DNA of 64,000 bases from Schizochytrium sp. TIO01 (taxonomy: Eukaryota > Protista > Bigyra: Labyrinthulomycetes), in NCBI GenBank assembly GCA_004764695.1, contig SMSO01000035.1, positions 3,732,040 through 3,796,039 of the forward strand, in the 5' to 3' direction. Position 1 is the stretch's first letter; each line of letters opens with the position of its first letter. The translations under genes were made by a program, and so were the position numbers. This document shows positions 29,793 to 54,706 of the stretch, one piece after another. The notes beneath the pieces were generated by a model. It worked only from the letters and a program-made list of their open reading frames with translations. It was not told where the DNA came from and did no database searches.

Positions 29793-30665
29793 CGCCGCAC
29801 AGCGGCTGCCTCGCTGTCGAGGCTCCGACGGTTTGCAGCGCTCCCGAATTGAGCTTTGCTGTTATTGTTTTTTGTTTTGTTGATTCTCGTTTTTTCCAAA
29901 TCATCATTTTTACTTCTTCTTTTTCTTTTCTACCACTTATTAGTATCTACTCTACTACCGCTCATGTTTTTCTTATTCTTATTTTCTTCTATGATGTGTA
30001 TATTTTTAATTGAAAAAGAAAAAGAAAAAGAAAAAGAAATAAAGACACCGAGTATAAAATAGGATATCAGATGGATACAATAGACTATTGATGAATACTC
30101 TATAGTAGAGGCGGCTTTTGACGTACGGCAAAAGACACGTCGCTTTTACCGTACGTCTTGAATTGAAGGTCGCTCTGCATAGGTACCAGCTCCACGAGCG
30201 TGGAGATTCCCTCCAAGCTTGTGCCGGGTATATTGCATCGTTGCCATGAGCACTGCCGACCTCCTCAGACTCGCATCGACGACCTTTAGAGTTTAAGGTT
30301 TTCATTGTAATGTGAATGCGGCATTCCAGTTTTACGAAGGCAGTTTAGAAACACGACTAGAGAAAAAAGAAAGAAACGGAGGCATTATAATGGCGATAAG
30401 AAGAGAGAGAAAACTTTGTGTAATAATACTCAATGTTTTTGCTTCGAATGGTGTATTTGACGTGTGGCACTCGCATCGATTTTGCGGTGAACAGAACCGC
30501 TTGGAGGCGTCTCTAGGTCGTGGGGCCGATCTTCGCGACGTCGGGGTCTTTGGGATATCAAGGGGCGGGTCTGCGAGTTCGTTGTCTGGTTTGAAGAAAG
30601 TCGTGGAACGAAAGTCTTTTTTGGTTAGAGTTTGGTGCTCATCTAAAAGCAGCGAGGGGCCCAAC

Positions 30666-31850
30666 ATGGCCAAAAACAAGGCTAAGAACAAAACCAAAAG
30701 CGCGCGTGCAAGGAATCGGGCAAAAGATTCAGCGAGACCTGGCATTGGAGAGAGTTCTGTAGATTTACCAGAGTCTGCAGTGCAAAACTCAACGTCCAAT
30801 ACCGAAAATAATGCTCAAACGAACGAAAATAGCACCAGGACTGGTGGCAGCAGTGCAAAGGGCGCGAATTATGTACCAGCGTCCATGCCAGGGTGTCATG
30901 TAGCGCGGTTCAATGCAGACTGGCTTGTAGACATCGAGACAGATCTGGACGAAGACACGTTCGGTGTAAGTCTAGATCAGATTCCAGAGATCTCTGTAGA
31001 TCCTGAGTCCGGACTGCTATCCGTGATCAACAGCGACCAAACTCGCTGCAAAAGCTTCAACTTAACTCTTGCAGGAGCTTGCCTTCCCGCAATTGATGGC
31101 AAGAACCGTCAACTTTCGATGGGGTCTACGCGTGATGATAACGGAGTAGAAATACCATGTGTCAGCTTTGTGCTGGTAGTGAAGCCTTGCCAGATGATGG
31201 ATGTGTGCTTTGTAAGTGCGCTGCCAGATGTGGAGGGTGGCAAGGAGGGTAGTGTGGCAGATCTTGCCTCAGATGTACAGTTCTGCCCACTGGATCTCCC
31301 CGGCGAGAATAATGCTGAGGACCAAATATTGCAAAACCCGATTCCACAGATATACTTCCCACTTGGAGGTGACGGGCCGTTTTTGTGTTCACAAGGTACT
31401 TGCGGCCACTTCACCCATTATTTCCCTGGAAACTGTTTTGCTGTAGATTTGGAATGCCCTGTGGGTACACCTATTCTCGCAGTTGGCCCTGGTGTCATCA
31501 GGGGAGTGCGCCAGCACGAGTGCGTAGAAGGCATCCATGCGCGTAATCTCTTTCACTGGAACTCACTACAGCTCGAACTCGATGCAGGTGGCATCGTCGA
31601 GTACGTACACATACAAAAAGACAGTGTTGTCGTGTCACAGGGAGATCGTGTCGAGACTGGTCAGCTCGTATGCCGAAGTGGCGCTGTAGGTTTTGTCCCG
31701 CAACCGCACCTTCATTTGCAGATGTTGCCTTCTCTTGAAGAGAACGCTGCATCCATTCCTTTTTCGATCTATTGTCGCTGTTCAGACCATATCGATGGGA
31801 TTGTTAAGCCGCAAGAGCCATTGGCAGGTCTGTATTATGCTGCCCAATAA
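30666..31850 (+). CDS. Peptidase M23 (LytM-like) domain protein
   Basis: Likely ATG at 30666 (the track uses an upstream GTG). 'THYFPGNCFAVDLECPVGTPILAVGPGVI', 'EYVHIQKDSVVVSQGDRVETGQLVCRSGAVGFVPQPHLHLQ' give an H...D and HxH Zn site with the usual M23 strand pattern. Confidence 0.85.
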   Translation: MAKNKAKNKTKSARARNRAKDSARPGIGESSVDLPESAVQNSTSNTENNAQTNENSTRTGGSSAKGANYVPASMPGCHVARFNADWLVDIETDLDEDTFGVSLDQIPEISVDPESGLLSVINSDQTRCKSFNLTLAGACLPAIDGKNRQLSMGSTRDDNGVEIPCVSFVLVVKPCQMMDVCFVSALPDVEGGKEGSVADLASDVQFCPLDLPGENNAEDQILQNPIPQIYFPLGGDGPFLCSQGTCGHFTHYFPGNCFAVDLECPVGTPILAVGPGVIRGVRQHECVEGIHARNLFHWNSLQLELDAGGIVEYVHIQKDSVVVSQGDRVETGQLVCRSGAVGFVPQPHLHLQMLPSLEENAASIPFSIYCRCSDHIDGIVKPQEPLAGLYYAAQ

Positions 31851-32102: not shown

Positions 32103-32197
32103 CCTGTAAGGTCTATCTACATGAACTGCTGCATCTCGCACTTCTGTCTTCGAACCAGTCCTGATGAGAGGACTCAGATATGGGCTCTTGTATTTGA
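32103..32197. repeat. Degenerate ~95-bp copy of 28201-28294 (internal fragment of the 1181-aa gene)
   Basis: 'cctgtaaggtctatctacatgaactgctgcatctcgcacttctg...ggactcagatatgggctcttgtatttgaa' vs 'cctgtaaagtctacatgaacggctgtatctcgcacttctg...ggactcaggtacgggctcttgaatttgaa'. Confidence 0.8.
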
Positions 32198-32412
32198 AAT
32201 ATTATTCATCACTTGAACGGAAGCATCACGATACTTGGGATAAAGAACGTGACATTTGCAAAAAGCTAAGTTAGGTTGCCCCATTCCCCATATAGACCAG
32301 TCCTAACACAAACTAAGCGATATTTATTTTAAAAGTTTTCAAAGTAGAAAAAATAAAAATTTATAAACCAAAAAAACTCGATCATGTACTTTTTTCTTGT
32401 TGTTCTAATAAA

Positions 32413-33684
32413 ATGATCGAATCAAATCCGGTTCTTAGCAAGATGCACCCCGCTCTGCGCCTCGAAGCAGACTTCGCTGCATTACACAGTACCCTTAAAG
32501 CTGACGTTGAGGGTGACGCTATCCGAAAAAGGATACGTGCACGTCTGGGCCAACACCGAGGACAACGATGGAGGCTGCCAAGAAAGACCCTTGGCAACGG
32601 GAGCGCGATCAACGACCAACCATCACCGTTGCAAGAATCGCGAGAGCTGCCAGGACTCTTGCAAGAGCTAAGCGAAGCTCAAAGGATATATGTGGAAAGG
32701 CAAACTGTAGCCCGTGAGGAGAGTCTCCGTAAAAAACTTCAGAAACGGGACCATCGTGGGCGACCTGTGGTGCCAGAAGAGTTTTCCCGCGAACTGGCAA
32801 AGTTTGCGAAACCAAATCCCAATAATGTGCGTTTTCAGGCCGATAAAACAGAGGAGCTCACAACCGTGCGAACACAGACATATATGAACTCTTTCGACAA
32901 GCATCAAGATATTCTGCAAAATATCTTGCCGCCCCTGTCGAGCGATTTTAAAGCTTATATGGTTAGTGTTGGCTTCGAACGCAATGGGATGACTCTTGAG
33001 CCAATTAGTGATTCTTGCGCGTGTCTCGGATGCCAGCATCTGCAAAATGGCGGTTGGGGAAAACAACTTGCTTTGACAACCCCGTATAGAACACGTAAAG
33101 GCCCTGTTGTGCGAAATTTAGCACTGAGAGGTGCAGAAATGATTGCAGAGGTGTACACAAAGGACAATTCTAAGAAATTCTGCGCGCGATCCTTCTCAGT
33201 GTCTATGGCTACCAAGCGTCTTGTTGAGTTTGCTGCAGAGAAGGAGGGAGGTTACGAGTCCGTCAACGCACTCAACTTGCGATGTATCTGTACGGGCATT
33301 GTGCGTCTTGAAATGGGGCGCAGGCTTGTACAAAACCGGTGTCTTCCCATGGTTGAGCCGCGACACGAGGAAGCCACCCGGGAAATTTTTCGTGCAATTG
33401 AAGCCAAGAATTTTTCGGGGCGTATCAATAAAGTCTTCGTGCAATACCTGATTGACACATTCTCAGAAGCTAAGGAAGATGATCGTATCGACTTGCTGAC
33501 TTGGGATGAGTTATTGCATGGTCAGCGACACCTTGGATCGCCAGGTAGTAAAGCTCATGTTCTTGCTGTGCGCGCATTCTTCGAGGGCCGTTGTCCATCA
33601 TATGTGCATAAAACATCGTTTGAAAGTGAGGATTTCTACCTACTTATTGGTTTGACTGCAAAGAAGGCCGAGGAAGCAGAATAA
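32413..33684 (+). CDS. Hypothetical 423-aa protein of unknown family
   Basis: ATG-initiated 423-codon ORF with globular-like composition, flanked by AT-rich DNA. No family confidently recognised. Confidence 0.7.
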   Translation: MIESNPVLSKMHPALRLEADFAALHSTLKADVEGDAIRKRIRARLGQHRGQRWRLPRKTLGNGSAINDQPSPLQESRELPGLLQELSEAQRIYVERQTVAREESLRKKLQKRDHRGRPVVPEEFSRELAKFAKPNPNNVRFQADKTEELTTVRTQTYMNSFDKHQDILQNILPPLSSDFKAYMVSVGFERNGMTLEPISDSCACLGCQHLQNGGWGKQLALTTPYRTRKGPVVRNLALRGAEMIAEVYTKDNSKKFCARSFSVSMATKRLVEFAAEKEGGYESVNALNLRCICTGIVRLEMGRRLVQNRCLPMVEPRHEEATREIFRAIEAKNFSGRINKVFVQYLIDTFSEAKEDDRIDLLTWDELLHGQRHLGSPGSKAHVLAVRAFFEGRCPSYVHKTSFESEDFYLLIGLTAKKAEEAE

Positions 33685-39161: not shown

Positions 39162-40286
39162 TTACAAATGCTTGGCAAGCTCAGTGCGCTTGGAGGATTC
39201 CTCAGGAAATTTAATATTGAAGCGCACAATCAGGTTTCCCTTTACACCTGTTTTTGTGTTTGGCATACCGCGCTCGCGCAGGACAACCTCTTGCTTGGCT
39301 TCGCGGAGCGCTCCGTAAGGGACGCGGATGTGGTGATTGTCCAGAGTTTTGACGATAGCGTTGCCGCCGATAAGGGCATCCTTAAGGCTGACGTCGATTG
39401 TGGTGTAGAGATCATCGCCCTTGCGAGTAAAGACCTCATGGGGCTTTTCCTTGAGTTTGAAGACCATGTCTGCTGGCTCATAACCGGGTTCTTCGGAACC
39501 GAGGTTCTTAAAGGTGAACTTAGTGCCCTCCTTCATCTGCGGCTTCAGCTTGAGCTCGACGACTTGGGCAGCATCTGTGTAGCGGCCACTGGCGCCATCG
39601 TAGAGTTTGCGTGTAACCTTGAGTTTCTTCGTTGCACTGGTGAAGAGATCTTCAAGGGAAACTGCGAAGTCCTTCTCAATTGCAGGCCGCTTCTTGGGCG
39701 GCTCCTGGCGTTGACGTTGATGCTGCTGCTGCTGGCTGAACGGGTTATGGCCGCCCTGAGGGTTTGCATCAAAATCGACATCCATACCGTCCATTCCAAA
39801 ACCTCCAAAGCCACCGCCCATGCCGCCCATGCCGTTACCTCCAGAGTTGAAGACGAAAGTGCGGCCGCCCTTGCCGCCACCCATTCGAGAGCTGCCTCCA
39901 AAGCCGCCCTGACCGCCACCAAAAAATTGAGCGAAGAGGTTTTCTGCAAATTCAGGTGGCATGGAGAAGCCGCCTTGGCCGCCTCCCATACCTCCCATAC
40001 CTCCCATGCCGCCCATGCCGCCCATGTTGTCGGCCTGCTCGCCGGTCATACCAGCCTTGAGGCCTTCTTCTCCAAAGCGATCATAAACCTTGCGTTTTTC
40101 AGGATCGGAGAGCACTGCGTATGCCTCTGCAATATCCTTAAACATGGTGTCATCGCCCTTCTGCTTATCAGGGTGGTACTTGAGCGCGAGTTTTCTGTAT
40201 GCCTTCTTGAGTTCTGCCTCTTGGGCATCCTTGCCTACTCCGAGGATTTTGTAGTAGTCGCGACCTGAGTTGCGAGCCTGCACCAT
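39162..40286 (-). CDS. Hsp40 class B J-protein (Sis1/DNAJB-like), copy 1
   Basis: J-domain '[36 protein letters not shown]', G/F and G/M region, C-terminal substrate-binding domains, no Zn finger. Confidence 0.95.
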
Positions 40287-40337
40287 TGTTGCTTGCCGCG
40301 GTGCTGGGTCTCTCTTGCTACCTTCTGCTGGCTAACT

Positions 40338-40340
<3 letters not shown>

Positions 40341-40381
<41 letters not shown>

Positions 40382-40490
40382 GTTCGAGTTTTGCTTGCTG
40401 CTGGGTCGAGTCCTTGAGGCCTCTGGCTTTCCTATCGAAATACTTTGAGTCGAGTTGAGTCGAGTCGAGTTGAGTCGAGTCGAGTTGACT
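40341..40490. repeat. (CTG)13 and (GAGTC/GAGTT)n microsatellites upstream of DnaJ copy 1
   Basis: Directly visible at 40341-40380 and ~40447-40490. Confidence 0.85.
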
Positions 40491-40560
40491 TGAGTTTTGG
40501 GTTTGCTTCATCGAGGTCATCGTCGGTTGCCGACGACCTTCGTTTTAGTCCTTCGCGACT

Positions 40561-40590
40561 TTTCGAGAACACTCGAGAACAGTTAAGAAC
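40561..40590. promoter_or_regulatory. Imperfect heat-shock element near DnaJ copy 1
   Basis: tTTCgaGAAcaCTCgaGAAcaGTTaaGAAc, with GAA at 40567, 40577 and 40587 in 10-bp phase. Confidence 0.7.
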
Positions 40591-40701
40591 ACTCTCGAAA
40601 AAATACATCTTCCAGCAGTTCTACATTACCCCCTTTAGACGACTTGGGAAGAACAGCTAAGGGGCTCTAAGGGAGTATTTCAAAACTTTGAGAATTAATC
40701 T

Positions 40702-40726
40702 CGAAACTTCTGGAACGTTCCGGAAG
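40702..40726. promoter_or_regulatory. Perfect five-unit heat-shock element in the bidirectional DnaJ/Hsp104 promoter
   Basis: cGAAacTTCtgGAAcgTTCcgGAAg, an exact alternating nGAAn array 200 bp upstream of the Hsp104 ATG. Confidence 0.9.
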
Positions 40727-40925
40727 AGCTTCGGACTAATCTGGAACGAGTGTGGGAACGAGTGTGGGGAAAAGGTGGAATGTGGAGTGCCAAGAATCTT
40801 GGAACCAGCAAACCCGAAACTCGAATCAATCGAACAAGCAATCAAGAAACAAAGCGAAGAGAGCTCGACAACCAAGAGCTGACGTTGTATTTTGTAGCAA
40901 AAGTAAGAGAAGAAGAACTAGCAAG

Positions 40926-43688
40926 ATGACCGATTCCTCCAAGTGGTCTGATGAAACGATCAAGGTGATCAACGCCGCACACGAGACGGCTGTAAGCAGG
41001 GGCCATTCTCAGCTTACACCGGCGGCAGTGGCACAGGCGATGCTCGAAAACACCAACTCGCTTGCAACACGTCTTGTGGATCGCGCAGGTGGCGACCGTG
41101 CCACTCTGCTTCATGAAATTAATATGATAATGGGAAAGATGCCAACGCAGAGCCCGCCTCCTCAAGAACTTGCGCCCTCCAGTGGACTGCTCAGTGTTTT
41201 GCGCGCAGCAGCCAACTTTCAGAAGAAGCAAGGTGACTCATTTCTTACCCTCGACAGCCTCCTCAAGGCCTTAGCTAACGACTCCACGCTCAAGACTGCC
41301 TTCCAGGCTGCAGGTATTACTCCAAGTGCTATTGAAGAAGCCGCTAAGGCTGCCCGAGGCGCGAGCAACCGCCAGGTGCACACACGCAGTGGTGAACAGA
41401 ACTTCGAGGCCCTCGCCAAGTACGGACGGGACCTCACACAGGATGCCATGGACGGAAAACTCGACCCTGTCATTGGACGTGACCGTGAAGTTGCACGTCT
41501 TGTACAAATCCTCTCCCGTAAGACAAAATCCAACGCAATCCTCGTCGGCCCACCCGGTGTTGGTAAGACTGCCATATGTACTATGTTTGCCATGCGCATT
41601 GTTCAAGGTGATGTACCAGAGTCCATTATTAACTGCAGACTCTGGGAACTCGATGTTGCAGCACTCTTGGCTGGTGCTTCGCACCGTGGTGAATTCGAGG
41701 AGAGACTCAAGTCTGTACTCAAGGAGATCGAGGACTCCAACGGCCAGATCATCCTCTTTGTTGATGAAGTCCATCTTCTCATGGGCGCCGGTGGTGGTCA
41801 AGGTGCAGCAGATGCAGCCAACATTCTCAAACCTGCTCTTGCCCGTGGTCTCAAGTGTATTGGCGCCACCACACTCGATGAGTACCAAAAGCACATCGAG
41901 AAGGACAAGGCGTTCTCACGTCGATTTCAGAAGGTAGATGTATTGGAGCCCAGCGTAGAGGACACTGTCTCTATTCTTCGCGGAATCAAGGACAGCTATC
42001 AGTCACACCATGGTGTAACGATTCAAGATGCAGCTGTGGTTCTGGCTGCCAAGCTTGCGAAGCGTTACGTGACTCAGCGCCGTTTGCCGGACTCAGCTAT
42101 CGATTTGTTGGACGAGGCAGCTGCTCATGTACGTGTACAGCTCGACTCTCAGCCTGAAGAGATTGACCAGCTGGAGCGTCGTAAGCTTCAGCTGGAGGTT
42201 GAGGAGACCGCGCTCAAGCAGGAGAAAGATAAGGCCAGTAAGGACAGACTTAAGATTTGCCAGAAGGAGCTCAGTCAAATTGAGGAGGAGCTACGTCCGC
42301 TGCGCCTTAAGCATGAAGATGAGAAGAAGCGTGTAGACGAGCTTCGTCGTCTTCGTAATAAGATCAAGGAGGTACACCAGAAGATTGCACAAGCTGAGCG
42401 TGATCGTGACTTGACTCGAGTTGCTGACCTTCGCTATGGTGCCATTCCAGAGCTCGAAGGTCAACTGGAGCGACTCACCGTAGAGGATGCCAAGCGTAAG
42501 CGTGAGCAAGCCGACACTCGTCTTCTCACGGAGATCATCGGACCTCAGGATATTGCAATGGTAGTAAGTCGCTGGACTGGCATTCCTGTAGACCGTCTGC
42601 AGAGCTCTGAGTCTGAGAAGCTTCTAGAGCTTGCCGCGCGCCTGAAGACTCGTGTGATTGGTCAAGACAGTGCCATCGATGCCGTTGCCGATAGTATTAT
42701 TCGTGCACGTGCTGGCCTCGCTCCAGAGACTCGTCCTATTGCCAGCTTTCTGTTCCTGGGCCCTACAGGTGTGGGTAAGACTGAGTCTGTGAAGGCATTG
42801 GCTCAGGAACTCTTCGATGATCCCAACAGTATGGTTCGCATTGACATGTCAGAGTACATGGAGAAGCACGCTGTTTCTCGTTTGATCGGTGCAGCGCCCG
42901 GCTATGTAGGCTACGAGGAAGGTGGTCAGTTGACAGAGGCTGTAAAGCGTCGCCCATACACCGTGATCTTACTTGATGAGGTGGAGAAGGCTCACCGGGA
43001 TGTATTCAATGTACTTCTTCAAGTGTTGGACGATGGACGTCTTACGGATGGTCAAGGAACGTTGGTAGACTTTCGGAACACGATCATCATCATGACATCA
43101 AACATTGGAAGTCAGTACCTTATTGAGGCGATGTCTTCCCAGGCGACGAAGCGTCGGCGTATGAACCAAGTACCAGAATCTGACTCTGACTCCGACGACG
43201 ATCGTGTGGACATGTCTATGGAGAAAGCTAAGGAAAGTGTCATGCGAGATGTGCGCGCTCATTTTCGCCCCGAGTTGCTGAACCGTTTAGATGATATCAT
43301 TGTCTTTGAACCTTTGGCGCAGTCACGTCTCCATGCAATTGCAGAGCAGCAACTCAATATCTTGATGCGTCAACTAATGACGGATCGCAACATTACTGTG
43401 AAGGCTTCACCGACCACTCTGGACCATATCGTCAATGTTGCATATGACCCAGCATACGGTGCTCGTCCTCTGCGCAGATGGCTCGAGCGTTACATTGGCA
43501 CTGATGTCGGTCGCCTGGTACTTTCCGGTGCAATCGCCGATTCTGCCTTGGTCATTATTTCCACCAAGGATGAGCCTGTGAGCGCATCTGTGACAAGGTC
43601 ACTTCCTGCACCCGGTACAAGCGGTCTTCGTTATGACATCACTACATTCCCCGAGGATGATGTCGACATGATCACAAGCAAGTACTAG
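40926..43688 (+). CDS. HSP104: Hsp104/Hsp101/ClpB disaggregase, copy 1 (920 aa)
   Basis: ATG at 40926 aligns with the start of copy 2. Clp-N domain; NBD1 GPPGVGKT/FVDEVH; M-domain coiled coil 'ADLRYGAIPELE'; NBD2 [37 protein letters not shown]. Confidence 0.97.
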   Translation: MTDSSKWSDETIKVINAAHETAVSRGHSQLTPAAVAQAMLENTNSLATRLVDRAGGDRATLLHEINMIMGKMPTQSPPPQELAPSSGLLSVLRAAANFQKKQGDSFLTLDSLLKALANDSTLKTAFQAAGITPSAIEEAAKAARGASNRQVHTRSGEQNFEALAKYGRDLTQDAMDGKLDPVIGRDREVARLVQILSRKTKSNAILVGPPGVGKTAICTMFAMRIVQGDVPESIINCRLWELDVAALLAGASHRGEFEERLKSVLKEIEDSNGQIILFVDEVHLLMGAGGGQGAADAANILKPALARGLKCIGATTLDEYQKHIEKDKAFSRRFQKVDVLEPSVEDTVSILRGIKDSYQSHHGVTIQDAAVVLAAKLAKRYVTQRRLPDSAIDLLDEAAAHVRVQLDSQPEEIDQLERRKLQLEVEETALKQEKDKASKDRLKICQKELSQIEEELRPLRLKHEDEKKRVDELRRLRNKIKEVHQKIAQAERDRDLTRVADLRYGAIPELEGQLERLTVEDAKRKREQADTRLLTEIIGPQDIAMVVSRWTGIPVDRLQSSESEKLLELAARLKTRVIGQDSAIDAVADSIIRARAGLAPETRPIASFLFLGPTGVGKTESVKALAQELFDDPNSMVRIDMSEYMEKHAVSRLIGAAPGYVGYEEGGQLTEAVKRRPYTVILLDEVEKAHRDVFNVLLQVLDDGRLTDGQGTLVDFRNTIIIMTSNIGSQYLIEAMSSQATKRRRMNQVPESDSDSDDDRVDMSMEKAKESVMRDVRAHFRPELLNRLDDIIVFEPLAQSRLHAIAEQQLNILMRQLMTDRNITVKASPTTLDHIVNVAYDPAYGARPLRRWLERYIGTDVGRLVLSGAIADSALVIISTKDEPVSASVTRSLPAPGTSGLRYDITTFPEDDVDMITSKY

Positions 43689-44144
43689 AATAATTAATAT
43701 ATCATTACAACAGAATAATTTGAAATAGCCAGTAAAAAACATTGAAAATATCTTCAAACATATAGAACATATGAATTCAGTTCCTTTAGCATGTTGTCTT
43801 TATGCTTAGTGCTCCAATACGCCATTTAAAAATCTTGTTGAGGTCTTGCAACTCTTGTGAAATTTCGTATATAAATAGAATGCTACTTGCGCCCTTTATA
43901 ATCCGAAAGAAGCAGAAACAAAACCATCGTGATTGCCCTCAAAGCTGGAGCGATGAGCATGATGTATTGAATCCGATAAATGGAACTTGATCTTTCACTT
44001 TCTTGCTTCGATCGAAATTTATAGCAAAGAACCACTGTTATCATTTAAAACTAAATCTACACTTTTGAAAGCTTTTCGACGAGCTCGCTACGTGTGGAGG
44101 AGTCTTCAGGGAACCTGACATTGAAACGAACAATCAAATTACCC
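42642..44144 (+). repeat. 1,503-bp direct repeat, left copy (3' 1,047 bp of HSP104-1, intergenic, last 88 bp of DnaJ-2)
   Basis: Matches 47988-49490 at a constant offset of 5,346, with about 16 substitutions counted by eye and no indels seen. Confidence 0.95.
44057..44144 (-). pseudogene. Orphaned 3' fragment of DnaJ copy 2 ([28 protein letters not shown])
   Basis: Identical to 49403-49490 and truncated at the cassette junction. Confidence 0.9.
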
Positions 44145-44362
44145 CCAAGCAGGACCACACTTTCTGTGTCATGGCATACGCCTCGCGACTTGTGCCTTCC
44201 GATGCGCCGCTGGCCCAAGCTGCTGCGGAACTAGTGCGACTGCAAGGGCGCCGGGTAGAGTGAATGGAAAAATGAAAAAAAGCGAAAGAAACTTGATCTC
44301 AATTGAGAGTAAAAAGGATATTTGAAGAAGAGAAGAACGTAGGAGTATCTGCGAGTGAGTGC

Positions 44363-45346
44363 TCAGTAGCCGTCAAAGTACGTCCAACCCAGTTCATTCT
44401 GCTCGACAATCCCAGCGTAGATGCGTACAATATCCTTACCACACTCAATGTCTCTTAGTCGCTCCATGCTCATTTGAGGGTCTGCAATTGAATAGTCTCT
44501 GAGTTTTAGCTTTCCAAAACGTTTCAATTGAGTACTCTTCGGCCCAGTGCGACGAGGCGTTGGTAAAACAGAGCTCGTGGATTCGAAGTATGCACTCACG
44601 GGAATCACAGGAGCAGTTTGCCGGTGCTTACAAGGCGTTTTTACAGGTGTCGTGTATGCGTCTCCTCAAATGAGATGAACGAGTGTGTATCACAGTCCTC
44701 CTTCTCTTCCTCTTCATCCTCCTCCTCCTCAATGACAGATGATTCTTTGGCTCCACTGTTCAATTCAGCACTAGCTAGAGTGCGTTGAATACAATGACCG
44801 GGTCCAGCTGCTTGTAGCGACTCAATGTCTTGTAGGATACTTTCTAAGTGGGCAAAGAATGGATAGTACACAAGGAATTTGGCCTTGAAGAAGAAGTCAT
44901 CCGATTCCTGGAGAGGGAGGGAACTCCTTCATCAAATGCACAACCATTCGCACCTTGAAACAAAGCGGTTTGATTGAGGCTTGCCGCAAATGAGGGATCA
45001 TCTTGGAAGAGAATATTCAGATCCTCAGTTTGATTGAAGATGTGAAGTGCGCAAGTAAAAGCTTTCATGGCACGCAGAGTGGAGTCGTCAGTGGTAAAGA
45101 CACACCCGACCAAAGGAGTGATGGTAATCTCTTCCGGGGCTATATTTTCATTAAATACAGAACTGTAGAAAGAAAAGGGCCAAGTTCTCTTTGATAAGAG
45201 TAAAGGCGTGTTTGTGAATGACTGCACTGGTAAATTATTTTGCAAGTAATGGTCGCAAAGGCAGCTTTGATCTGCGCAGGGAGGAGCATGCAAAAGGGTT
45301 CAAGGAACTCCTTCGCAGACTCTAGACTCTCATCAATGACAATCAT
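44363..45346 (-). pseudogene. Frameshifted gene remnant (~325 codons, about 3 frameshifts), unknown family
   Basis: Four overlapping or abutting minus-strand ORF pieces (45346-45140, 45293-44844, 44871-44641, ~44665-44363) with protein-like composition, starting at ATG 45346. Confidence 0.55.
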
Positions 45347-45959
45347 CCGACTCGTAAGTAAGTGTTTGTGCTATTGATCCGCGTCAACTCTCGTTAGATT
45401 TCTGCTGCTCCGGTGCCTCTGACTTTGTTATTCCCAATCCAGAAGACAAGAAGAAGGTCCAGAACCGCTAACCTTAAGAACTAGATGGGCTTAGTGCGAT
45501 CTTGAGCGGTTGCACACGAAAGACGAGTCTACCTTTAAACCAACAACTTCATACAGGTTTGGACAATAACTCCCAATTCAAATCGACTCTGAGGGGGGTG
45601 GAGGTCACTAAAGGAGTCAGGTTTCGCAAGTATAAACAGGGATACAACTTCTTCCAAAATAAAAAATAAAAATAAAGAAATGAAAAGAATAAAAATGGGA
45701 ACTCTTTACGGTCCTACATTATTCCATAAGTTCTAAGCGCTCAGTAGTACCTCGTATTGAATTTGCTTGAGTGACCAAGAACTATTTTGAAAATTCTTTT
45801 AAAGGTATCAAAGAAACCATTACGAGGTACGCTTTTCTCATTACAAGTTGCACACACAGTTGCACACGCGAGTGAGCGAGGGAAAAGCTTCAATTGCAGC
45901 AAAACATCATCAGCGGCAAGCAAAACGCAAACGACAAGCAGGCCAGGCCAGGCGACAAC

Positions 45960-47849
45960 ATGCCGGACTCCGACATTGACGAAGAAAATGTACTTTCACT
46001 CGCTAGCGTGCAGGATATGTCTGACGAACAACTTCGGGATCTAGACCTGGCTAGTGTAGACGTGGGTGACGAAGTCCTTGAATTTCTCCTCAACAAACGC
46101 CAGCAATTGACCGAGAACCAAAGAAATCTGCTCCAACGACTCAAGAAATGGGCACGGAGATCCCGTCGACGGGAAGAAATAGGCACAGAACGGGGAATAC
46201 AAATAGGCACAGAACGGGGCATTGCTAGCACTCAGGAGACCGTGGCGGTGGCGCTAGACAAAAACCTCTTTTCTAGCATTTCGCGGAAACTGCTAAAGTC
46301 TACAGCGAAAACACCATCGACATGGGCTTTGCCGTATACCTCACTCAATGTGTGGGAGGAATTCGAAACAGAAGTAATTGAAAGTGAAGACTTTCTACTC
46401 TCCGGTGTCCTAGAAGCAATGATTGTGAACGTTATTTTCAAGCCCTTGCTAACCCTCGACATTCGCGCAAATGCCGAGAATGCAAAATTAAATTTCCTTG
46501 CTAGGGTCTGTAATCCACTTCAAACCTTGGGGCAGGATGTTGCTGACTTCCCTGAAATCGAAATTCAGCCTGAACAAAACATTGGTCTCGCACTGAAGTC
46601 GGATATTAACCTATCGGCAATTGAAAATGAAAACGGGAGGCAGGTTTCCAGGGTTTTCTGTGTCATCGAGGCAAAGCGACCAAACCAGTTCCTGACAGAA
46701 CATGGGCGAACCGTGGAAAAACGCAGGGAGAGAGCAGAAAAAAACGTAGTATGTATTGGGCTAAGCAAGGATTTTGAAAATGGTCTCTGTCAGTTGCTTG
46801 GATACATGGTGCTCTACGGCCTGAAGTACGGAGTTTTGACATCTTTCGAGGTCACGTACTTCTGCAAGCGAGACGAAGTAGGTCATATGTGGATTTCAAG
46901 GGGATTCTACGGAATTCAGAAAATAACAGAACCTAGTGTCAATTATGCGATGGCTGCCTTCATCTATAAAATCCTTCACGACAACGAAAGAAGGCTCCCT
47001 TACCCGTCCGCGGAGAGCGACTCGATTGAAGTAAGGGACTTTTATGCACAATGCCAGGAGAGCTGGGGCGATAAGCGGGTCGATAAGAAGGACACACTCA
47101 AGTTTTTGAAGGAGATGATCGGACCAGCTTGCGCAAATTTCATCAGATCCACGATAACGAGCGCGGCCAATCAGGCCGGTCAGGAAGATGAGATCGAGGG
47201 TCTCCGCAATAAAGTCGCCAGCTTCCTACCACTGAGCGAGAAGGCCTTCAGCATGCCTCTACCCTGGGAGGAGGATTTTAAGATTGTGGCGGAAGGTGTG
47301 GCTCGGATTCCTTGGATTTCTTATGAAGGTTTCACATGGGACGTCTTTGTCAAGGCTATGCAAATTTCGAAGGATTGGTCGAAGTGGGTTTTTGCAGAGA
47401 ACAAGGAGTTCTTTCTCAAAGAAGTTGAGTTCTATAAGGGCCCCCTGCACAAATTGCAAGGTCTTTACATCCCTTTCTTGGTGTATGGCGGCGTGTTCCA
47501 TGGCCAAGTAATCATCGCCACGACCTCTTCAGGTGTAACTGCGACTAAAGAGCTGATGATCACTCATCGTGATTGGGCGCCCCGTTCCATCAGAAAATCG
47601 CTTGCGCGCGTGCATCAGGCGGGCGTCTTACATGGCGACATTGCCTGGCGCAACATCGCACTCAACCCGGAGTCCAAGACTGCACATTTGATCGATTTTG
47701 GCCGCGCCACCCAACATAAAGACCCCAAGAAGTTTGAGAAGTTGCAAACTAAAGAAAAGGAGGCGCTTGAGGACTTGCTGTCCTGTGTCAGCGCGCGGAA
47801 GCGTCTGCGCAACTCATTTAGATCTCTCAAGCAAGCACTTGGCGTGTGA
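45960..47849 (+). CDS. PD-(D/E)xK (REase-fold) nuclease + atypical protein kinase fusion (Crinkler/CR-effector-like), 629 aa
   Basis: First ATG at 45960. Nuclease motifs 'PEQ..KSDINL..FCVIEAKRP..LCQLLGYMVLYGLKYGVLTSFEVTYFCKR'. Kinase motifs 'VFVKAM', 'EVEFYKGPLHKLQGLYIP', 'VHQAGVLHGDIAWRNI', 'LIDFGRA'. Confidence 0.85.
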   Translation: MPDSDIDEENVLSLASVQDMSDEQLRDLDLASVDVGDEVLEFLLNKRQQLTENQRNLLQRLKKWARRSRRREEIGTERGIQIGTERGIASTQETVAVALDKNLFSSISRKLLKSTAKTPSTWALPYTSLNVWEEFETEVIESEDFLLSGVLEAMIVNVIFKPLLTLDIRANAENAKLNFLARVCNPLQTLGQDVADFPEIEIQPEQNIGLALKSDINLSAIENENGRQVSRVFCVIEAKRPNQFLTEHGRTVEKRRERAEKNVVCIGLSKDFENGLCQLLGYMVLYGLKYGVLTSFEVTYFCKRDEVGHMWISRGFYGIQKITEPSVNYAMAAFIYKILHDNERRLPYPSAESDSIEVRDFYAQCQESWGDKRVDKKDTLKFLKEMIGPACANFIRSTITSAANQAGQEDEIEGLRNKVASFLPLSEKAFSMPLPWEEDFKIVAEGVARIPWISYEGFTWDVFVKAMQISKDWSKWVFAENKEFFLKEVEFYKGPLHKLQGLYIPFLVYGGVFHGQVIIATTSSGVTATKELMITHRDWAPRSIRKSLARVHQAGVLHGDIAWRNIALNPESKTAHLIDFGRATQHKDPKKFEKLQTKEKEALEDLLSCVSARKRLRNSFRSLKQALGV

Positions 47850-47874
47850 AAAAATGAACAGTATTGATTCATAA

Positions 47875-47896
47875 CTTCTTCTTCTTCTTCTTCTTC
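47875..47896. repeat. (CTT)7 microsatellite just 3' of the nuclease-kinase gene
   Basis: cttcttcttcttcttcttcttc. Confidence 0.8.
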
Positions 47897-47987
47897 TGCA
47901 GCAGCGTCGGTTAGCTCGACAGTTCTACCCGACTGGGCTTCAAGGTGCCTCGATTCAACATACCTTCAGTCTTCGTCGTGCCTCCAA

Positions 47988-49034
47988 CTGAAGACTCGTG
48001 TGATTAGTCAAGACAGTGCCATCGATGCCGTTGCCGATAGTATCATTCGTGCACGTGCTGGCCTCGCTCCAGAGACTCGTCCTATTGCCAGCTTTCTGTT
48101 CTTGGGCCCTACAGGTGTGGGCAAGACTGAGTCTGTGAAGGCATTGGCTCAGGAACTCTTTGATGATCCCAACAGTATGGTTCGCATTGACATGTCAGAG
48201 TACATGGAGAAGCACGCTGTTTCTCGTTTGATCGGTGCAGCGCCCGGCTATGTAGGCTACGAGGAAGGTGGTCAGTTAACAGAGGCTGTAAAGCGTCGCC
48301 CATACACCGTGATCTTACTTGATGAGGTGGAGAAGGCTCACCGGGATGTATTCAATGTACTTCTTCAAGTGTTGGACGATGGACGTCTTACGGATGGTCA
48401 AGGAACGTTGGTAGACTTTCGGAACACGATCATCATCATGACATCAAACATTGGAAGTCAGTACCTTATTGAGGCGATGTCTTCCCAGGCGACGAAGCGT
48501 CGGCGTATTAACCAAGTACCAGAATCTGACTCTGACTCCGACGACGATCGTGTGGACATGTCTATGGAGAAAGCTAAGGAAAGTGTCATGCGAGATGTGC
48601 GCGCTCATTTTCGCCCCGAGTTGCTGAACCGTTTAGATGATATCATTGTCTTTGAACCTTTGGCGCAGTCACGTCTCCATGCAATTGCAGAGCAGCAGCT
48701 CAATATTCTGATGCGTCAACGAATGACGGATCGCAACATTACTGTGAAGGCTTCACCGACCACTCTGGGCCATATCGTCAATGCTGCATATGACCCAGCA
48801 TACGGTGCTCGTCCTCTGCGCAGATGGCTCGAGCGTTACATTGGCACTGATGTCGGTCGCCTGGTACTTTCCGGTGCAATCGCCGATTCTGTCTTGGTCA
48901 TTATTTCCACCAAGGATGAGCCTGTGAGCGCATCTGTGACAAGGTCACTTCCTGCACCCGGTACAAGCGGTCTTCGTTATGACATCACTACATTCCCCGA
49001 GGATGATGTCGACATGATCACAAGCAAGTACTAG
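47988..49034 (+). pseudogene. 5'-truncated HSP104 fragment (NBD2 + C-terminus only)
   Basis: ~99% identical to the 3' part of HSP104-1. No initiating ATG and no N-domain, NBD1 or M-domain. Frame still open, with 6 missense changes (G>S, M>I, L>R, D>G, V>A, A>V). Confidence 0.88.
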
Positions 49035-49490
49035 AATAATTAATATATCATTACAACAGAATAATTTGAAATAGCCAGTAAAAAACATTGAAAATATCTT
49101 CAAACATATAGAACATATGAATTCAGTTCCTTTAGCATGTTGTCTTTATGCTTAGTGCTCCAATACGCCATTTAAAAATCTTGTTGAGGTCTTGCAACTC
49201 TTGTGAAATTTCGTATATAAATAGAATACTACTTGCGCCCTTTATAATCCGAAAGAAGCAGAAACAAAACCATCGTGATTGCCCTCAAAGCTGGAGCGAT
49301 GAGCATGATGTATTGAATCCGATAAATGGAACTTGATCTTTCACTTTCTTGCCTCGATCGAAATTTATAGCAAAGAACCACTGTTATCATTTAAAACTAA
49401 ATCTACACTTTTGAAAGCTTTTCGACGAGCTCGCTACGTGTGGAGGAGTCTTCAGGGAACCTGACATTGAAACGAACAATCAAATTACCC
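47988..49490 (+). repeat. 1,503-bp direct repeat, right copy
   Basis: Begins ctgaagactcgtgtgatt and ends caatcaaattaccc, as does 42642-44144. Confidence 0.95.
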
Positions 49491-50545
49491 TTGTTTCCAG
49501 TTCTTGTATTGGGCATGCCTCGCTCACGAAGTGTGACTTCGTGCTTGGACTCTTTGAGGGTACTGAATGGAACACGAATGTTTTGTTTGTCAAGGGTCTG
49601 TACAATAGCCTGGCCACCTTGCAAGGCATCCTTGAGGCTGATATCCACTACCACATAAAGGTCATCTCCTTTTCGTGTAAACTTCTCATGCGGCTTTTCC
49701 TTGAGTTTAAAGATCATATCAGCAGGTTCATAGCCAGGTTCCTCGGAGCCAAGGTTCTTGAAGGTAAATTTGGTCCCTTCCTTCATCTGCGGCTTCAGCT
49801 TAAGCTCAACAACCTGTTGTGAGTCTGTGTAGGAATTCGTAGACTCGTTAAAGAGTTTACGTGTGATCTTCAATTTCTTGGTAGCACTAGTATACAAGTC
49901 CTCTAGTGAAACGGAAAAGTCCTTTTCGACAGGAGGCCGCTTCTGGCGCTTGGCAGGACGCTGGGAGTCCTCGAATCCATTTCGTGAACCTCCAGACATA
50001 CCGCCCATCCCTCCAGGCATACCACCCATGCCACCCATTCCAGGCATGCCACCCATGCCGCCCATACCACCACCCATGCGGCCTCCCATGCCTCCTGGCA
50101 TGCCGCCCATGCTGGAAAACATAAATGGTTCGTCGTCATCGGCGCCGTTCATGAACGAGAAACCTCCATTGCTTCTAGACCCTCCAAAGAACTGCGAGAA
50201 GAGGTTCTCTGCAAATTCTGGAGGCATCGAGAATCCGCCAGCACCACCAGGACCTCCGCTAAATCCTCCGCCAAATCCTCCACTGCCCATATTGTCGGCC
50301 TGGTCACCGGTCATACCAGCCTTAAGGCCTTCTTCGCCAAAACGATCGTAAACCTTGCGTTTCTCGGGATCTGAGAGCACAGCATAGGCCTCGGCAACTT
50401 CTTTAAACATCCTCTCGTCACCAGTTTTGCGATCGGGGTGGTACTTCATAGCAAGCTTCTTGTAGGCCTTTTTCAGGGCAGGTTCGTCGGCATCCTTGCC
50501 CACGCCAAGGATTCCATAAAAGTCGCGGCCGGAGTCCTGCGGCAT
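49403..50545 (-). CDS. Hsp40 class B J-protein (Sis1/DNAJB-like), copy 2
   Basis: J-domain with HPD ('KYHPDRK'), G/F and G/M linker, C-terminal domains; clear paralogue of 39162-40286. Confidence 0.95.
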
Positions 50546-50719
50546 TGTTGCTCGTCAAACGCAATCTTGTGCTTTTCGGCAGCCAGTTTTGTATCAATCA
50601 GTCAGGCGGCGTGCGCAATCTGCTGTATCCTGCCACTACTGCTACGGTATCAACGAAGAATTGATCTCCTGTCGAAGCCGAGGGAGGGTACCATTCGTGT
50701 TTGCTGCTCGATGCTCTCC

Positions 50720-50739
50720 TGAATATCCAGGAATGTTCA
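50720..50739. promoter_or_regulatory. Four-unit heat-shock element (one mismatch) upstream of DnaJ copy 2
   Basis: tGAAtaTCCagGAAtgTTCa, 175 bp upstream of the ATG at 50545. Confidence 0.7.
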
Positions 50740-51922
50740 AGCACCTAGACACTACCAAGTTAGTCCTAATCTTCAGAAAAAGACTGCTTTATCACTGGCC
50801 ACCCTTAAGGACCATATGCTTTCCACTCATGGTGGTGTCAGCGCATCGATTTGCCTGCTTAGCTAGTGCCTATCCTCAGGCTCTTTCTTCCCAAGCAGAA
50901 CTGAGATCCCCGAGTTCAGGTATACATCGACTTCAAGTCTCGAGCACAAACGTAAAGGCCATGGCGAGGAAGAGTAGACTCTGCTTGTGAAACCTACCAG
51001 CCTCAGAGATATACACACGAGGGCCTCGATTGTGTTGATTGCTTTTCCGCTGCGTTCTCTCCCGCGTTCTCCGCCTCGTTCCCCCAAACTTCCGCAGTGC
51101 CTCACCTAGTGTACCTCCTACTCTAAACCATAGCTAGCCCCTTTTGAAATCCCGCAGCTTCGTCCCCCCTGTTCCCGCTTCTGCAAAGATGGGTCTCAGG
51201 CGACCTGGAGCCATCGAGAGACGAATTGAGGATGGGAATGTGCTGCCAAATGCGCTTTCCGTCCAAGGTTATGTCTCCATCATAGATTGCGTCCAGGAAA
51301 GGCGCTAAGAGTTAAGATGCGCACAAGGTCGGTTTCGATTCGATGATGGCAGTGAAGTTTGGCGGCGAAAGCAGCAGAGGCTCAAGCTTGAGGCTGAGAT
51401 TTACAACTACTTCAGGCACGCTTCTACGAGAAGCATCCTTTGTACTTCATCTGAACTGCGTTGATCGAGACTGGTTTCGTTTTGATGATCGTGGCGAAAG
51501 CACCCACTGCGCGAAGTTAAGCACGCGTAGCCTGTAGGTCCCTAGCAGCGAATGGCGGACGAGCGATGGATTAGCATTTCACCTCTAGTGCCACACCCGA
51601 AAGCAGCAGAACCTGCTGGGCTTGCCTAGGCTTGCGTTGGCAGATTGATTCACGCCGAGGAAGAATCTCGCAGAAGCATTGCCAGTTGCTAGCCTTTGAA
51701 CTCCATTCTGCTGAGAACTTGAGGAGGCTACACGTCTTGTAGAATCAGGTGCAGACTGACTGCTAAGAACCAGTACAAAGTAGGTAGGTATGTATGTAGG
51801 TAGGTAGGTGGGTAGTAACGAGGGAACTGGCCAGCTCAGAGTGGCACTGCAAACCCGAAATCACATTGACTGCCTAATCTGGAAACTCGTATCGTTGGGA
51901 TTTGCTTGCATACAGATAGACG

Positions 51923-54706
51923 ATGACAGATCCTGCAGGCTGGTCTGATGAGACGTCCAAGGTGATCAATGCCGCGCATGACGCTGCAGTGAACCATGGT
52001 CACTCTCAGCTCACACCAGCTGTTGTGGCGCAAACGATGCTCGAAAATTCTAATTCTCTCTCTGCAAGGCTAGTGGACCGAGCTGGCGGAGATCGTGCAT
52101 CCCTGCTTCATGAAATCACAATGATGGTCACCAAAATGCCGTCTCAGAGTCCAGCACCTCAACAACTTTCGCCTTCAAGTGGACTCCTGAGCGTGTTGCG
52201 AGCAGCGGATAATTTTAAAAAGAAACAAGGTGACTCATTTCTCACCCTCGACAGCCTCCTCAAGGCCCTTGCTAACGACTCCACGCTCAAGACTGCCTTT
52301 AAAACGGCGGGTCTGACACCTAGTAAGATCGAAGAAGCTGCTAAGGCTGCCCGCGGCACGAGCAACCGCCAGGTGCACACACGCAGTGGTGAACAGAACT
52401 TCGAGGCCCTCGCCAAGTACGGACGGGACCTCACACAGGATGCTATGGACGGAAAACTCGACCCTGTCATTGGACGCGACCGTGAAGTTGCACGTCTTGT
52501 ACAAATCCTCTCCCGTAAGACAAAATCCAACGCAATCCTCGTCGGCCCACCCGGTGTTGGTAAGACTGCCATATGTACTATGTTTGCCATGCGTATTGTT
52601 CAAGGTGATGTACCAGAGTCTATCGCGAGCTGCAAACTCTGGGAACTCGATGTTGCAGCACTCTTGGCTGGTGCTTCGCACCGTGGTGAATTCGAGGAGA
52701 GACTCAAGTCTGTACTCAAGGAAATCGAGGACTCCAACGGCCAGATCATCCTCTTTGTTGATGAAGTCCATCTTCTCATGGGCGCCGGTGGTGGTCAAGG
52801 TGCAGCAGATGCAGCCAACATTCTCAAACCTGCTCTTGCCCGTGGTCTCAAGTGTATTGGCGCCACCACACTCGATGAGTACCAAAAGCACATCGAGAAG
52901 GACAAGGCGTTCTCACGTCGATTTCAGAAGGTCGATGTGCTGGAGCCCAGCGTAGAGGACACTGTCTCTATTCTTCGCGGAATCAAGGACAGCTATCAGT
53001 CACACCATGGTGTAACGATTCAAGATGCAGCTGTGGTTCTGGCTGCCAAGCTTGCGAAGCGTTACGTGACTCAGCGCCGTTTGCCGGACTCAGCTATCGA
53101 TTTGTTGGATGAGGCAGCTGCTCATGTACGTGTACAGCTCGACTCTCAGCCTGAAGAGATTGATCAGCTGGAGCGTCGTAAGCTTCAGCTGGAGGTTGAG
53201 GAGACCGCGCTCAAGCAGGAGAAAGATAAGGCTAGCAAGCAAAGGCTAAAACAGTGCCAGAAGGAGCTCAGTCAAATTGATGAAGAATTGCGACCTCTTC
53301 GCTTACGCCATGCTGAAGAAAAGGAGCGTGTAGACGAGCTTCGTCGTCTTCGTAATAAGATCAAGGAGGTACACCAGAAGATTGCACAAGCTGAGCGTGA
53401 TCGGGACTTGACTCGAGTTGCTGACCTTCGCTATGGTGCCATTCCAGAGCTCGAAGGTCAACTGGAGCGACTCACCGTAGAGGATGCCAAGCGTAAGCGT
53501 GAGCAAGCCGACACTCGTCTTCTCACGGAGATCATCGGGCCTCAGGATATTGCAATGGTAGTAAGTCGCTGGACTGGCATTCCTGTAGACCGTCTGCAGA
53601 GCTCCGAGTCTGAGAAGCTTCTTAAACTTGCAGACCGTCTGAAGACTCGTGTGATTGGTCAAGACACTGCGATTAACGCCGTTGCCGATAGTATTATTCG
53701 TGCACGCGCTGGCCTCGCTCCGGAGACTCGTCCTATTGCCAGCTTTCTGTTCCTGGGCCCTACAGGTGTGGGTAAGACTGAGTCTGTGAAGGCATTGGCT
53801 CAGGAACTCTTCGATGATCCCAACAGTATGGTTCGCATTGACATGTCAGAGTACATGGAGAAGCACGCTGTTTCTCGTTTGGTTGGTGCAGCGCCCGGCT
53901 ATGTAGGCTACGAGGAAGGTGGTCAGTTAACAGAGGCTGTAAAGCGTCGCCCATACACCGTGGTCCTTCTTGATGAGGTGGAGAAGGCTCACCGGGATGT
54001 ATTCAATGTACTTCTTCAAGTGTTGGACGATGGACGTCTTACGGATGGTCAAGGAACGTTGGTAGACTTTCGGAACACGATCATTATCATGACCTCGAAC
54101 ATTGGAAGTCAGTATTTAATTGATGCCGCCGCTCACGAGGCCACTCGCAAGCGTCGTCGCGTTTCGAAAGATCGGCCGGAAGCAGATTCTGACTCTGATG
54201 AAGCTTCCCAAGATACAGATCAAGCGAAAGAGCTTGTTATGCGAGATGTGCGCTCTCATTTTCGCCCCGAGTTGCTGAACCGTTTAGATGATATCATTGT
54301 CTTTGAACCTTTGGCGCAGTCACAACTTCATGCAATTGCCCAGCAGCAACTCAGTATTTTGACAAGACAGCTCAAGACTGATCGCAATATTGCTGTCTTT
54401 GCCACGCGAAATGCGCTCGACTTTATCGTTGAGGTGGCTTATGATCCAGCGTATGGCGCACGCCCGTTGCGCAGGTGGCTTGAACGTCATATTGGTACTG
54501 ATATTGGTCGCCTTGTTCTGTCGGGGGCAATTGCAGATTCTTCTACGGTCACTGTTGCTATGAAGGATGAACCAAAGTCTTCAAGTAAAGTGAGCAAAGT
54601 GATTTCCTCAACGATGACATCTAAGCTGCGCTACGAAATTGCGATGGGCATTACTGATGATGAGATGATGGATACGAGTTCTCAAAGTTCTATGAGTACT
54701 ATCTAA
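51923..54706 (+). CDS. HSP104: Hsp104/Hsp101/ClpB disaggregase, copy 2 (927 aa)
   Basis: Same motifs as copy 1, with divergent N- and C-termini. Confidence 0.97.
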   Translation: MTDPAGWSDETSKVINAAHDAAVNHGHSQLTPAVVAQTMLENSNSLSARLVDRAGGDRASLLHEITMMVTKMPSQSPAPQQLSPSSGLLSVLRAADNFKKKQGDSFLTLDSLLKALANDSTLKTAFKTAGLTPSKIEEAAKAARGTSNRQVHTRSGEQNFEALAKYGRDLTQDAMDGKLDPVIGRDREVARLVQILSRKTKSNAILVGPPGVGKTAICTMFAMRIVQGDVPESIASCKLWELDVAALLAGASHRGEFEERLKSVLKEIEDSNGQIILFVDEVHLLMGAGGGQGAADAANILKPALARGLKCIGATTLDEYQKHIEKDKAFSRRFQKVDVLEPSVEDTVSILRGIKDSYQSHHGVTIQDAAVVLAAKLAKRYVTQRRLPDSAIDLLDEAAAHVRVQLDSQPEEIDQLERRKLQLEVEETALKQEKDKASKQRLKQCQKELSQIDEELRPLRLRHAEEKERVDELRRLRNKIKEVHQKIAQAERDRDLTRVADLRYGAIPELEGQLERLTVEDAKRKREQADTRLLTEIIGPQDIAMVVSRWTGIPVDRLQSSESEKLLKLADRLKTRVIGQDTAINAVADSIIRARAGLAPETRPIASFLFLGPTGVGKTESVKALAQELFDDPNSMVRIDMSEYMEKHAVSRLVGAAPGYVGYEEGGQLTEAVKRRPYTVVLLDEVEKAHRDVFNVLLQVLDDGRLTDGQGTLVDFRNTIIIMTSNIGSQYLIDAAAHEATRKRRRVSKDRPEADSDSDEASQDTDQAKELVMRDVRSHFRPELLNRLDDIIVFEPLAQSQLHAIAQQQLSILTRQLKTDRNIAVFATRNALDFIVEVAYDPAYGARPLRRWLERHIGTDIGRLVLSGAIADSSTVTVAMKDEPKSSSKVSKVISSTMTSKLRYEIAMGITDDEMMDTSSQSSMSTI

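Follow-up and report, generated by a model that had tools for sequence, protein, structure and literature searches.

A Crinkler-type nuclease–kinase gene, fronted by a helical header of its own, on a 3.8-kb insertion amid chaperone genes of a likely thraustochytrid

A single gene that joins a predicted DNA-cutting domain to a predicted kinase raises the question of whether the second domain exists to hold the first in check, and of how such a gene comes to lie inside an insertion between intact chaperone genes. Such a gene, P0001, occurs in the 64-kb stretch of DNA analysed here (the window). A first-pass annotation, made from the sequence alone, had proposed either a Spok-like toxin–antidote gene or a Crinkler/RHS-type (CR) effector. 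The reading preferred here, at a probability of roughly 55%, is that this is a CR-type nuclease–kinase gene with its own helical header, carried by a 3.8-kb insertion, and that its product would act inside the cell as a conflict nuclease restrained by its kinase. The features on which the argument turns are collected in Table 1.

Table 1. Coordinates within the window of the gene, its domains, the insertion and the neighbouring host genes
Feature	Position	Strand	Basis
Header, REase and kinase gene P0001	45960..47849	+	Frame, phmmer, model, structure match
Helical header, aa 1-99	45960..46256	+	Model; kinship with P0007
PD-(D/E)xK (REase-fold) nuclease domain, aa ~125-345	46332..46994	+	Structure match, family alignment
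Helical stretch linking the two domains, aa 356-422	47025..47225	+	Model
Minimal RIO/Bud32-like kinase, aa ~430-615	47247..47804	+	Weak Pfam match, structure match
3,843-bp insertion	44145..47987	.	Self-comparison; without terminal inverted repeats or transposase family match
Direct repeat, left: intact ClpB1 3' half, spacer, orphan DnaJ2 3' end (44057-44144, minus)	42642..44144	+	
Direct repeat, right: orphan ClpB 3' half (47988-49034), spacer, intact DnaJ2 3' end	47988..49490	+	
Broken reading frame in four pieces, divergent orientation	44363..45346	-	X15 and X17 contigs cover it without joints
ClpB/Hsp101-type chaperone gene 1, intact host gene	40926..43688	+	
DnaJ gene 2, intact host gene	49403..50545	-	

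The gene is an unbroken frame of 629 amino acids, intact as first described, and self-comparison finds one copy of it in the whole window. Its start codon is backed by the homologue P0007, whose N-terminus begins in register, and its codon use lies at the low end of the window's range but still inside it. The encoded protein runs from a helical header through a PD-(D/E)xK nuclease domain to a minimal kinase of the RIO/Bud32 type, which terminates about 45 residues past its DFG motif. The nuclease half carries D215, E237-A-K239 and Q278xxxY282, and the kinase half K465, E488, H558-G-D560xxxxN565 and D579-F-G, the last two being the HGDxxxxN and DFG motifs earlier reported as intact. Pfam recognises the kinase core alone, with a score under its cut-off. 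The gene had also been described as intronless; the frame is indeed unbroken, but this state is not diagnostic because many other long frames of the window are unbroken as well.

Prediction of the structure from the single sequence reached a pLDDT of only 33.5, and a model built from an alignment of 89 homologues was used instead (mean pLDDT 82.7, pTM 0.61). When this model was compared with 48,161 solved chains, residues 157-343 matched the type IIG endonuclease BpuSI (Z 12.7, rmsd 3.1 Å, 145 residues aligned) and residues 425-613 matched Rio1/Rio2 (Z 14.0) and Bud32 (Z 12.2), so that both of the folds originally proposed, REase and kinase, are correct. Foldseek matches of the protein against the PDB were driven by the kinase only; PADLOC and NCBIfam returned generic kinase matches only, and the NCBIfam scores for housekeeping kinases all fell far under their cut-offs. 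A viral structure library yielded kinases and two whole-length matches to Pandoravirus DUF5898 proteins, whose TM scores of 0.17-0.21 are too poor to serve as evidence.

The nuclease motifs had been read as an E..D..EAK series followed by QxxGYM. All of this stands except the first glutamate. The family has a conserved glutamate column in helix 1 (glutamate in 80 and aspartate in 4 of the 91 filled rows), which in P0001 is occupied by Ala172, both in the MAFFT alignment and with a profile built without the protein's own clade; E173 stands one residue off the column. Non-acidic residues are also present at this position in P0156/P0006 and apparently in P0009. As Ala172 takes the place of a mostly kept glutamate, the predicted nuclease may be weak. 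D215, E237, K239, Q278 and Y282 are retained in relatives down to 29-44% identity.

A phmmer search with the protein recovered 216 proteins at E<=1e-3, including 7 at E<=1e-30, among 1.84 billion representatives; the best 150 of the 216 matches were retrieved, and the family set comprises 158 proteins. Both domains are present in 115 of the 158, with the REase domain first in all 115. The Pfam Crinkler N-terminal domain was found in 9 of the 89 aligned homologues, one of them from Entomortierella parvispora, and a REase profile built without the P0001 clade scores the REase domain of P0001 at 100.6 bits. One homologue, P0008, gives a weak HSDR_N match (E 0.003). The closest relatives, from JGI and MMETSP records, share 29-81% identity. 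A FastTree tree was built from 83 of the two-domain proteins, the other 32 of the 115 being short or near-copies. It puts the protein in an 11-row clade (SH-like support 97) together with proteins from MMETSP records and from Hondaea fermentalgiana, and separates this clade from the Crinkler-headed rows; as a reservation on the preferred reading, FastTree was the sole method and long branches were flagged. The folds, together with the homology to Crinkler-headed proteins, bear out the CR half of the initial proposal. Judged by sequence, P0001 belongs to a multicopy lineage of CR-type REase–kinase proteins that is likely thraustochytrid, a new lineage within a known class. In the portions available of a review (PMC5289972), REase–kinase combinations account for about one-sixth of CR C-termini, the REase is regarded as the toxic part and the kinase as the regulator, and both helical headers and free-living CR hosts are already on record.

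Searches in other collections were less productive. A word-index search returned nothing with the whole protein and three matches with the kinase region. No related loci were found in metagenome, viral or prokaryote contigs, plasmids or phages, by searches that are insensitive to distant relatives. The literature search found no description of this family, of a link between Spok and Crinkler or of such a duplication, although the supplements of Zhang et al. 2016 may list such proteins. One relative, P0011/P0160/P0161, combines degenerate nuclease and kinase motifs with a long Gln/His-rich N-terminus, and is possibly a domesticated copy. The source taxid given for P0010 and P0164, 87120, denotes a basidiomycete at NCBI, and is one digit swap away from Aurantiochytrium limacinum, 87102. 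A housekeeping protein encoded in the window clusters at 90% with a record carrying the source taxid of P0010, and this, together with the Hondaea clade, makes a thraustochytrid the likely host.

The helical N-terminal header seen in the first pass is all-helical in the model, at a pLDDT of about 80, with two short acidic helices followed by a long helix (residues 37-99) that includes a basic patch at residues 62-71. Its kinship with the N-terminus of P0007 is strong, the score being reached by none of 1000 shuffles, whilst that with P0083 is marginal (14 of 1000 shuffles reach the score). Among the N-termini of ten homologues, strong kinship was found with P0007 alone, and 8 of the 10 were not significant. 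As first noted, the protein has no signal peptide; it contains no hydrophobic leader or signal stretch (maximum KD 0.55). It has no match to the Pfam Crinkler domain at E<=0.1, and a ubiquitin-like header and the LxLFLAK and HVLV motifs are absent by motif scan and from the helical model; a classical CRN was rejected on these grounds.

Export of the protein as an effector, its helical header routing it into prey, host or competitor cells in the manner of oomycete and fungal CRNs, would agree with the homology of its C-terminal module to Crinkler-headed proteins. Some CR headers, in the available text of PMC5289972, are unrelated helical domains with a presumed role in translocation, and no signal peptide is required. 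The lack of a Crinkler domain, of an LxLFLAK-like motif and of a hydrophobic leader nevertheless argues against export, as does the conservation of the header at high significance in just one of the ten homologues tested, and this reading is very improbable.

The long helix of the header also includes a 24-nt tandem repeat (46177-46222), and a comparable Gly-spaced repeat occupies the corresponding place in the relative P0156. Gly-spaced helical repeats occur in bacterial Rpn nucleases, of which the tandem repeat in the header is reminiscent. It also recalls the variable coiled-coil repeats of Spok described in the accessible part of PMC6660238.

The discrete insertion on which the gene had been placed can now be delimited. 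The gene is carried by a 3,843-bp insert lying between direct repeats of 1,503 bp, which self-comparison shows to be 98.9% identical, with 16 mismatches and no gaps. Each repeat comprises the 3' half of a ClpB/Hsp101-type gene, a spacer and the last 88 bases of a convergent DnaJ gene. Because the repeat spans the 3' ends of both, both host genes are whole and each is accompanied by an orphan piece. The differences between the repeats were polarised with the second ClpB gene as outgroup, which left 1 of the 14 coding differences not polarisable. Of the 13 coding changes that could be polarised, 11 fall in the orphan ClpB half, among them every one of the 5 that alter an amino acid. The low number of mismatches and the concentration of changes in the orphan half fit a young duplication, one copy of which would have been released from constraint.

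No terminal inverted repeats occur at the ends of the insert, and, in keeping with the transposase-free insertion described earlier, none of the four pieces of the broken frame beside the gene matches a transposase or any other Pfam family at E<=0.1. A DNA transposon was rejected on both counts, and also because the target duplication measures 1,503 bp instead of being short. This 1.5-kb target duplication is the unusual part of the locus. There is no Rfam match in 43600-49600. The neighbour had been called decayed, and its frame is indeed broken into four pieces, the 130-aa piece of which has no homologue among 129 candidates; as no homologue was detected, it is treated here as a putative former gene.

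The wider setting has some features of its own. Two divergent DnaJ/ClpB pairs stand in tandem (39162-43688 and 49403-54706), with the insert between them; they represent an older duplication, with ClpB 88.7% and DnaJ about 70-74% identical at the DNA level. Elsewhere, the window contains a 2,330-aa frame with trefoil, PT repeat, PKD, TSP1, EGF and PH matches (10171-17163), a Peptidase M23 domain gene of possibly bacterial origin (30390-31850, E 4e-10), two frames with no significant Pfam family (26247-29792, 1,181 aa; 32413-33684, 423 aa) and an 85-bp stretch, 28210-28294, which resembles 32116-32198.

Public sequencing runs bear both on the reality of this arrangement and on copy number. At least half of the insert's words are contained in 20 of the 24 runs among the matches listed, from 10 studies. 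Contigs were compared for four runs, X15, X17, X18 and X20, which are RNA by guess only. The left junction is bridged by a contig without differences from X17 (44084-45383), and the right junction by such contigs from X18 (47466-48036) and X20 (47700-48600). Since these contigs cross both junctions and the repeat copies differ at 16 sites, the arrangement is no assembly artefact, with the proviso that one run may be the window's own source. The same X20 and X18 contigs continue past the end of the gene into the orphan ClpB half, and the X17 contig connects the broken neighbour with the orphan DnaJ end; should these three runs be RNA, transcription of both inserted units would continue into duplicated host 3' ends.

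Contigs about 84-87% identical to the gene overlap the exact copy in X15, X17 and X20, and divergent contigs overlap each other in X15 (two) and X20 (two). Two overlapping divergent contigs beside an exact one mean that a single run contains three or more sequence types. The loose ends of the divergent contigs lie close to the start (45901, 45947) and the stop (47818, 47854) of the gene, from which it follows that the copies share the gene and not its flanks. A single-copy syntenic orthologue, fixed across related species, had been put forward as the finding that would speak against a selfish gene; the public runs hold divergent copies instead. Some relatives are short or frame-shifted (P0010, P0162) and others degenerate in both domains (P0011, P0022), and, with the divergent copies, this is the pattern expected of a birth-and-death family.

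Selection on the frame had been proposed from its intact motifs beside a decayed neighbour. Intactness is no proof of selection, since a young insertion would be intact even without it, and the feature by itself fits youth. Variant sites speak weakly for selection. The 40 variant rows listed (there are 177 further rows) include 27 sites within the gene, 13 synonymous and 14 not; a synonymous share of 13/27 compares with an expected share of 0.31 (p=0.04), and none of the 27 listed sites alters a scored catalytic residue.

The state of the catalytic motifs was scored in 91 of the 115 two-domain proteins, 24 having been dropped because their core was uncovered, in a set of homologues selected largely by their kinase. 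Both motifs are intact in 69, the nuclease alone is degenerate in 13, the kinase alone in 4, and both in 5. The 13 proteins with a degenerate REase motif and an intact kinase would suit an attenuated or drifting passenger, that is, a weakened nuclease–kinase gene captured with neighbouring DNA, intact through youth or on its way to becoming a kinase or DNA-binding protein. Ala172 and its non-acidic counterparts in other relatives would be explained in the same way, as would a divergence of only about 1% between the repeat copies, the broken neighbour and the broken relatives. Such a passenger would not, however, be expected to keep five nuclease residues in common with relatives at 29-44% identity, nor to show mildly enriched synonymous variants that spare every scored catalytic residue, and the idea is judged unlikely.

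The 4 proteins in which a degenerate kinase accompanies an intact nuclease motif count mildly against strict self-protection by the kinase, as judged from motif states. Conversely, the nuclease is degenerate in 5 of the 9 kinase-degenerate rows, an association for which Fisher's test gives p=0.013 raw and 0.12 with near-copies collapsed, and in which some states may be alignment error. Joint loss of this kind would be anticipated if the gene were a Spok-like poison-antidote element, its nuclease killing non-carrier cells or daughter spores and its kinase protecting carriers, so that the gene spreads selfishly; pseudogenes, however, also decay jointly. In the available parts of two reports, SPOK killing requires the nuclease lysine and resistance requires the kinase and a cysteine cluster (PMC6660238), and a kinase-dead Spok1 causes DNA damage in E. 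coli and yeast (PMC9972908). P0001 has both catalytic modules in the SPOK order, including QxxxY and an ELK-like kinase as given in the accessible text of PMC6660238, is multicopy with some members broken, and has recently arrived at a new locus. Its Atlas look-alikes include SPOK2_N clusters at 0.94 and 0.95 and a Crinkler cluster at 0.92, but these are outranked by unnamed or kinase-labelled fungal clusters at 0.97-0.98. The cysteine cluster that precedes the Spok kinase, C-x3-C-x13-C-x5-H-x7-H, is absent from P0001 and from all 115 two-domain homologues, which rules out membership of Spok, and the literature search found no evidence of a sexual stage. The first-pass likeness to Spok is thus kept as an analogy in module order, and a poison-antidote function of this kind is a tentative possibility, of rather low probability.

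A more ambitious synthesis may be considered, in which thraustochytrids harbour single-gene nuclease–kinase selfish elements, self-protected by the kinase in the style of Spok and free of transposase. The element's own nuclease would break the target and repair would copy the gene in, with a kilobase-scale duplication which spares the flanking genes and supplies the insert with their 3' ends. Crinkler-type effectors and Spok drivers would then belong to one poison-antidote superfamily; the synthesis is considered distinctly improbable.

In the preferred reading, that of an intracellular, kinase-restrained conflict nuclease, the product likely stays inside the cell of its likely thraustochytrid host, where basic patches and the absence of a signal stretch would point to the nucleus. 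The nuclease domain is predicted to cut DNA, and the minimal kinase likely holds it in check, perhaps through (auto)phosphorylation. The protein may be one of the fast-turnover conflict proteins, directed at foreign DNA or at rival cells. This copy would have arrived by break repair, or by an integration that duplicated its target, with both host genes left whole. Set against this are Ala172 at the family glutamate, which may weaken the nuclease, and the 4 of 91 homologues in which the kinase is degenerate but the REase motif intact. The host label, too, is indirect, as the closest named records bear a taxid that denotes a fungus at NCBI. The REase-bearing RiCRN1, in the available part of PMC6131194, causes no cell death in plants despite an intact REase motif, so that motifs are no proof of toxicity.

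At this locus a Crinkler-type nuclease–kinase family, distinguished by a header of its own, is seen in what is likely a free-living marine protist. The intronless, directly expressible gene is well suited to the question of whether the kinase of CR REase–kinase proteins is an antidote like that of Spok, and the 1.5-kb duplication around the insert offers a rare, datable record of transposase-free arrival at new loci. Should the kinase be no antidote and the insert have been passively captured, the gene would be no more than one further member of a class already known and widespread.

A number of parallels can be drawn with known systems. Like the CR REase–kinase proteins (Zhang et al. 2016, as presented in the available text of PMC5289972; for example PiCRN8), P0001 has a header, a REase-fold nuclease and a kinase in the same order, is homologous over both domains to Crinkler-headed fungal proteins, and belongs to a multicopy family with some broken members and no signal peptide. 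It differs in its lineage-specific helical header, which lacks the ubiquitin-like fold and LxLFLAK, in its separate clade with thraustochytrid proteins, in the alanine at the helix-1 glutamate and in its position within a kilobase-scale target duplication. With BpuSI type IIG and type I HsdR-like endonuclease domains, and with Rio1/Rio2 and Bud32, it shares folds (Z 12.7 and 12-14, respectively) at only 12-19% identity; it has no methyltransferase and is no orthologue of the housekeeping kinases. Podospora SPOK, as far as the accessible texts describe it (PMC6660238, PMC9972908), likewise has a PD-(D/E)xK domain with QxxxY ahead of an ELK-like kinase, and its N-terminal coiled coil may be set beside the predicted long helix 37-99, the comparison being made with published features of SPOK. 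P0001, by contrast, is a non-fungal protein of 629 amino acids without the cysteine cluster. Finally, AACRNL is presented in the available part of PMC12957317 as a Crinkler-like selfish gene of free-living eukaryotes and a proposed genomic parasite. AACRNL is an ADP-ribosyltransferase which spreads with adjacent transposons, whilst P0001 combines nuclease and kinase with no transposon detected, yet in both a toxin module derived from CRNs lacks a functional host-targeting header.
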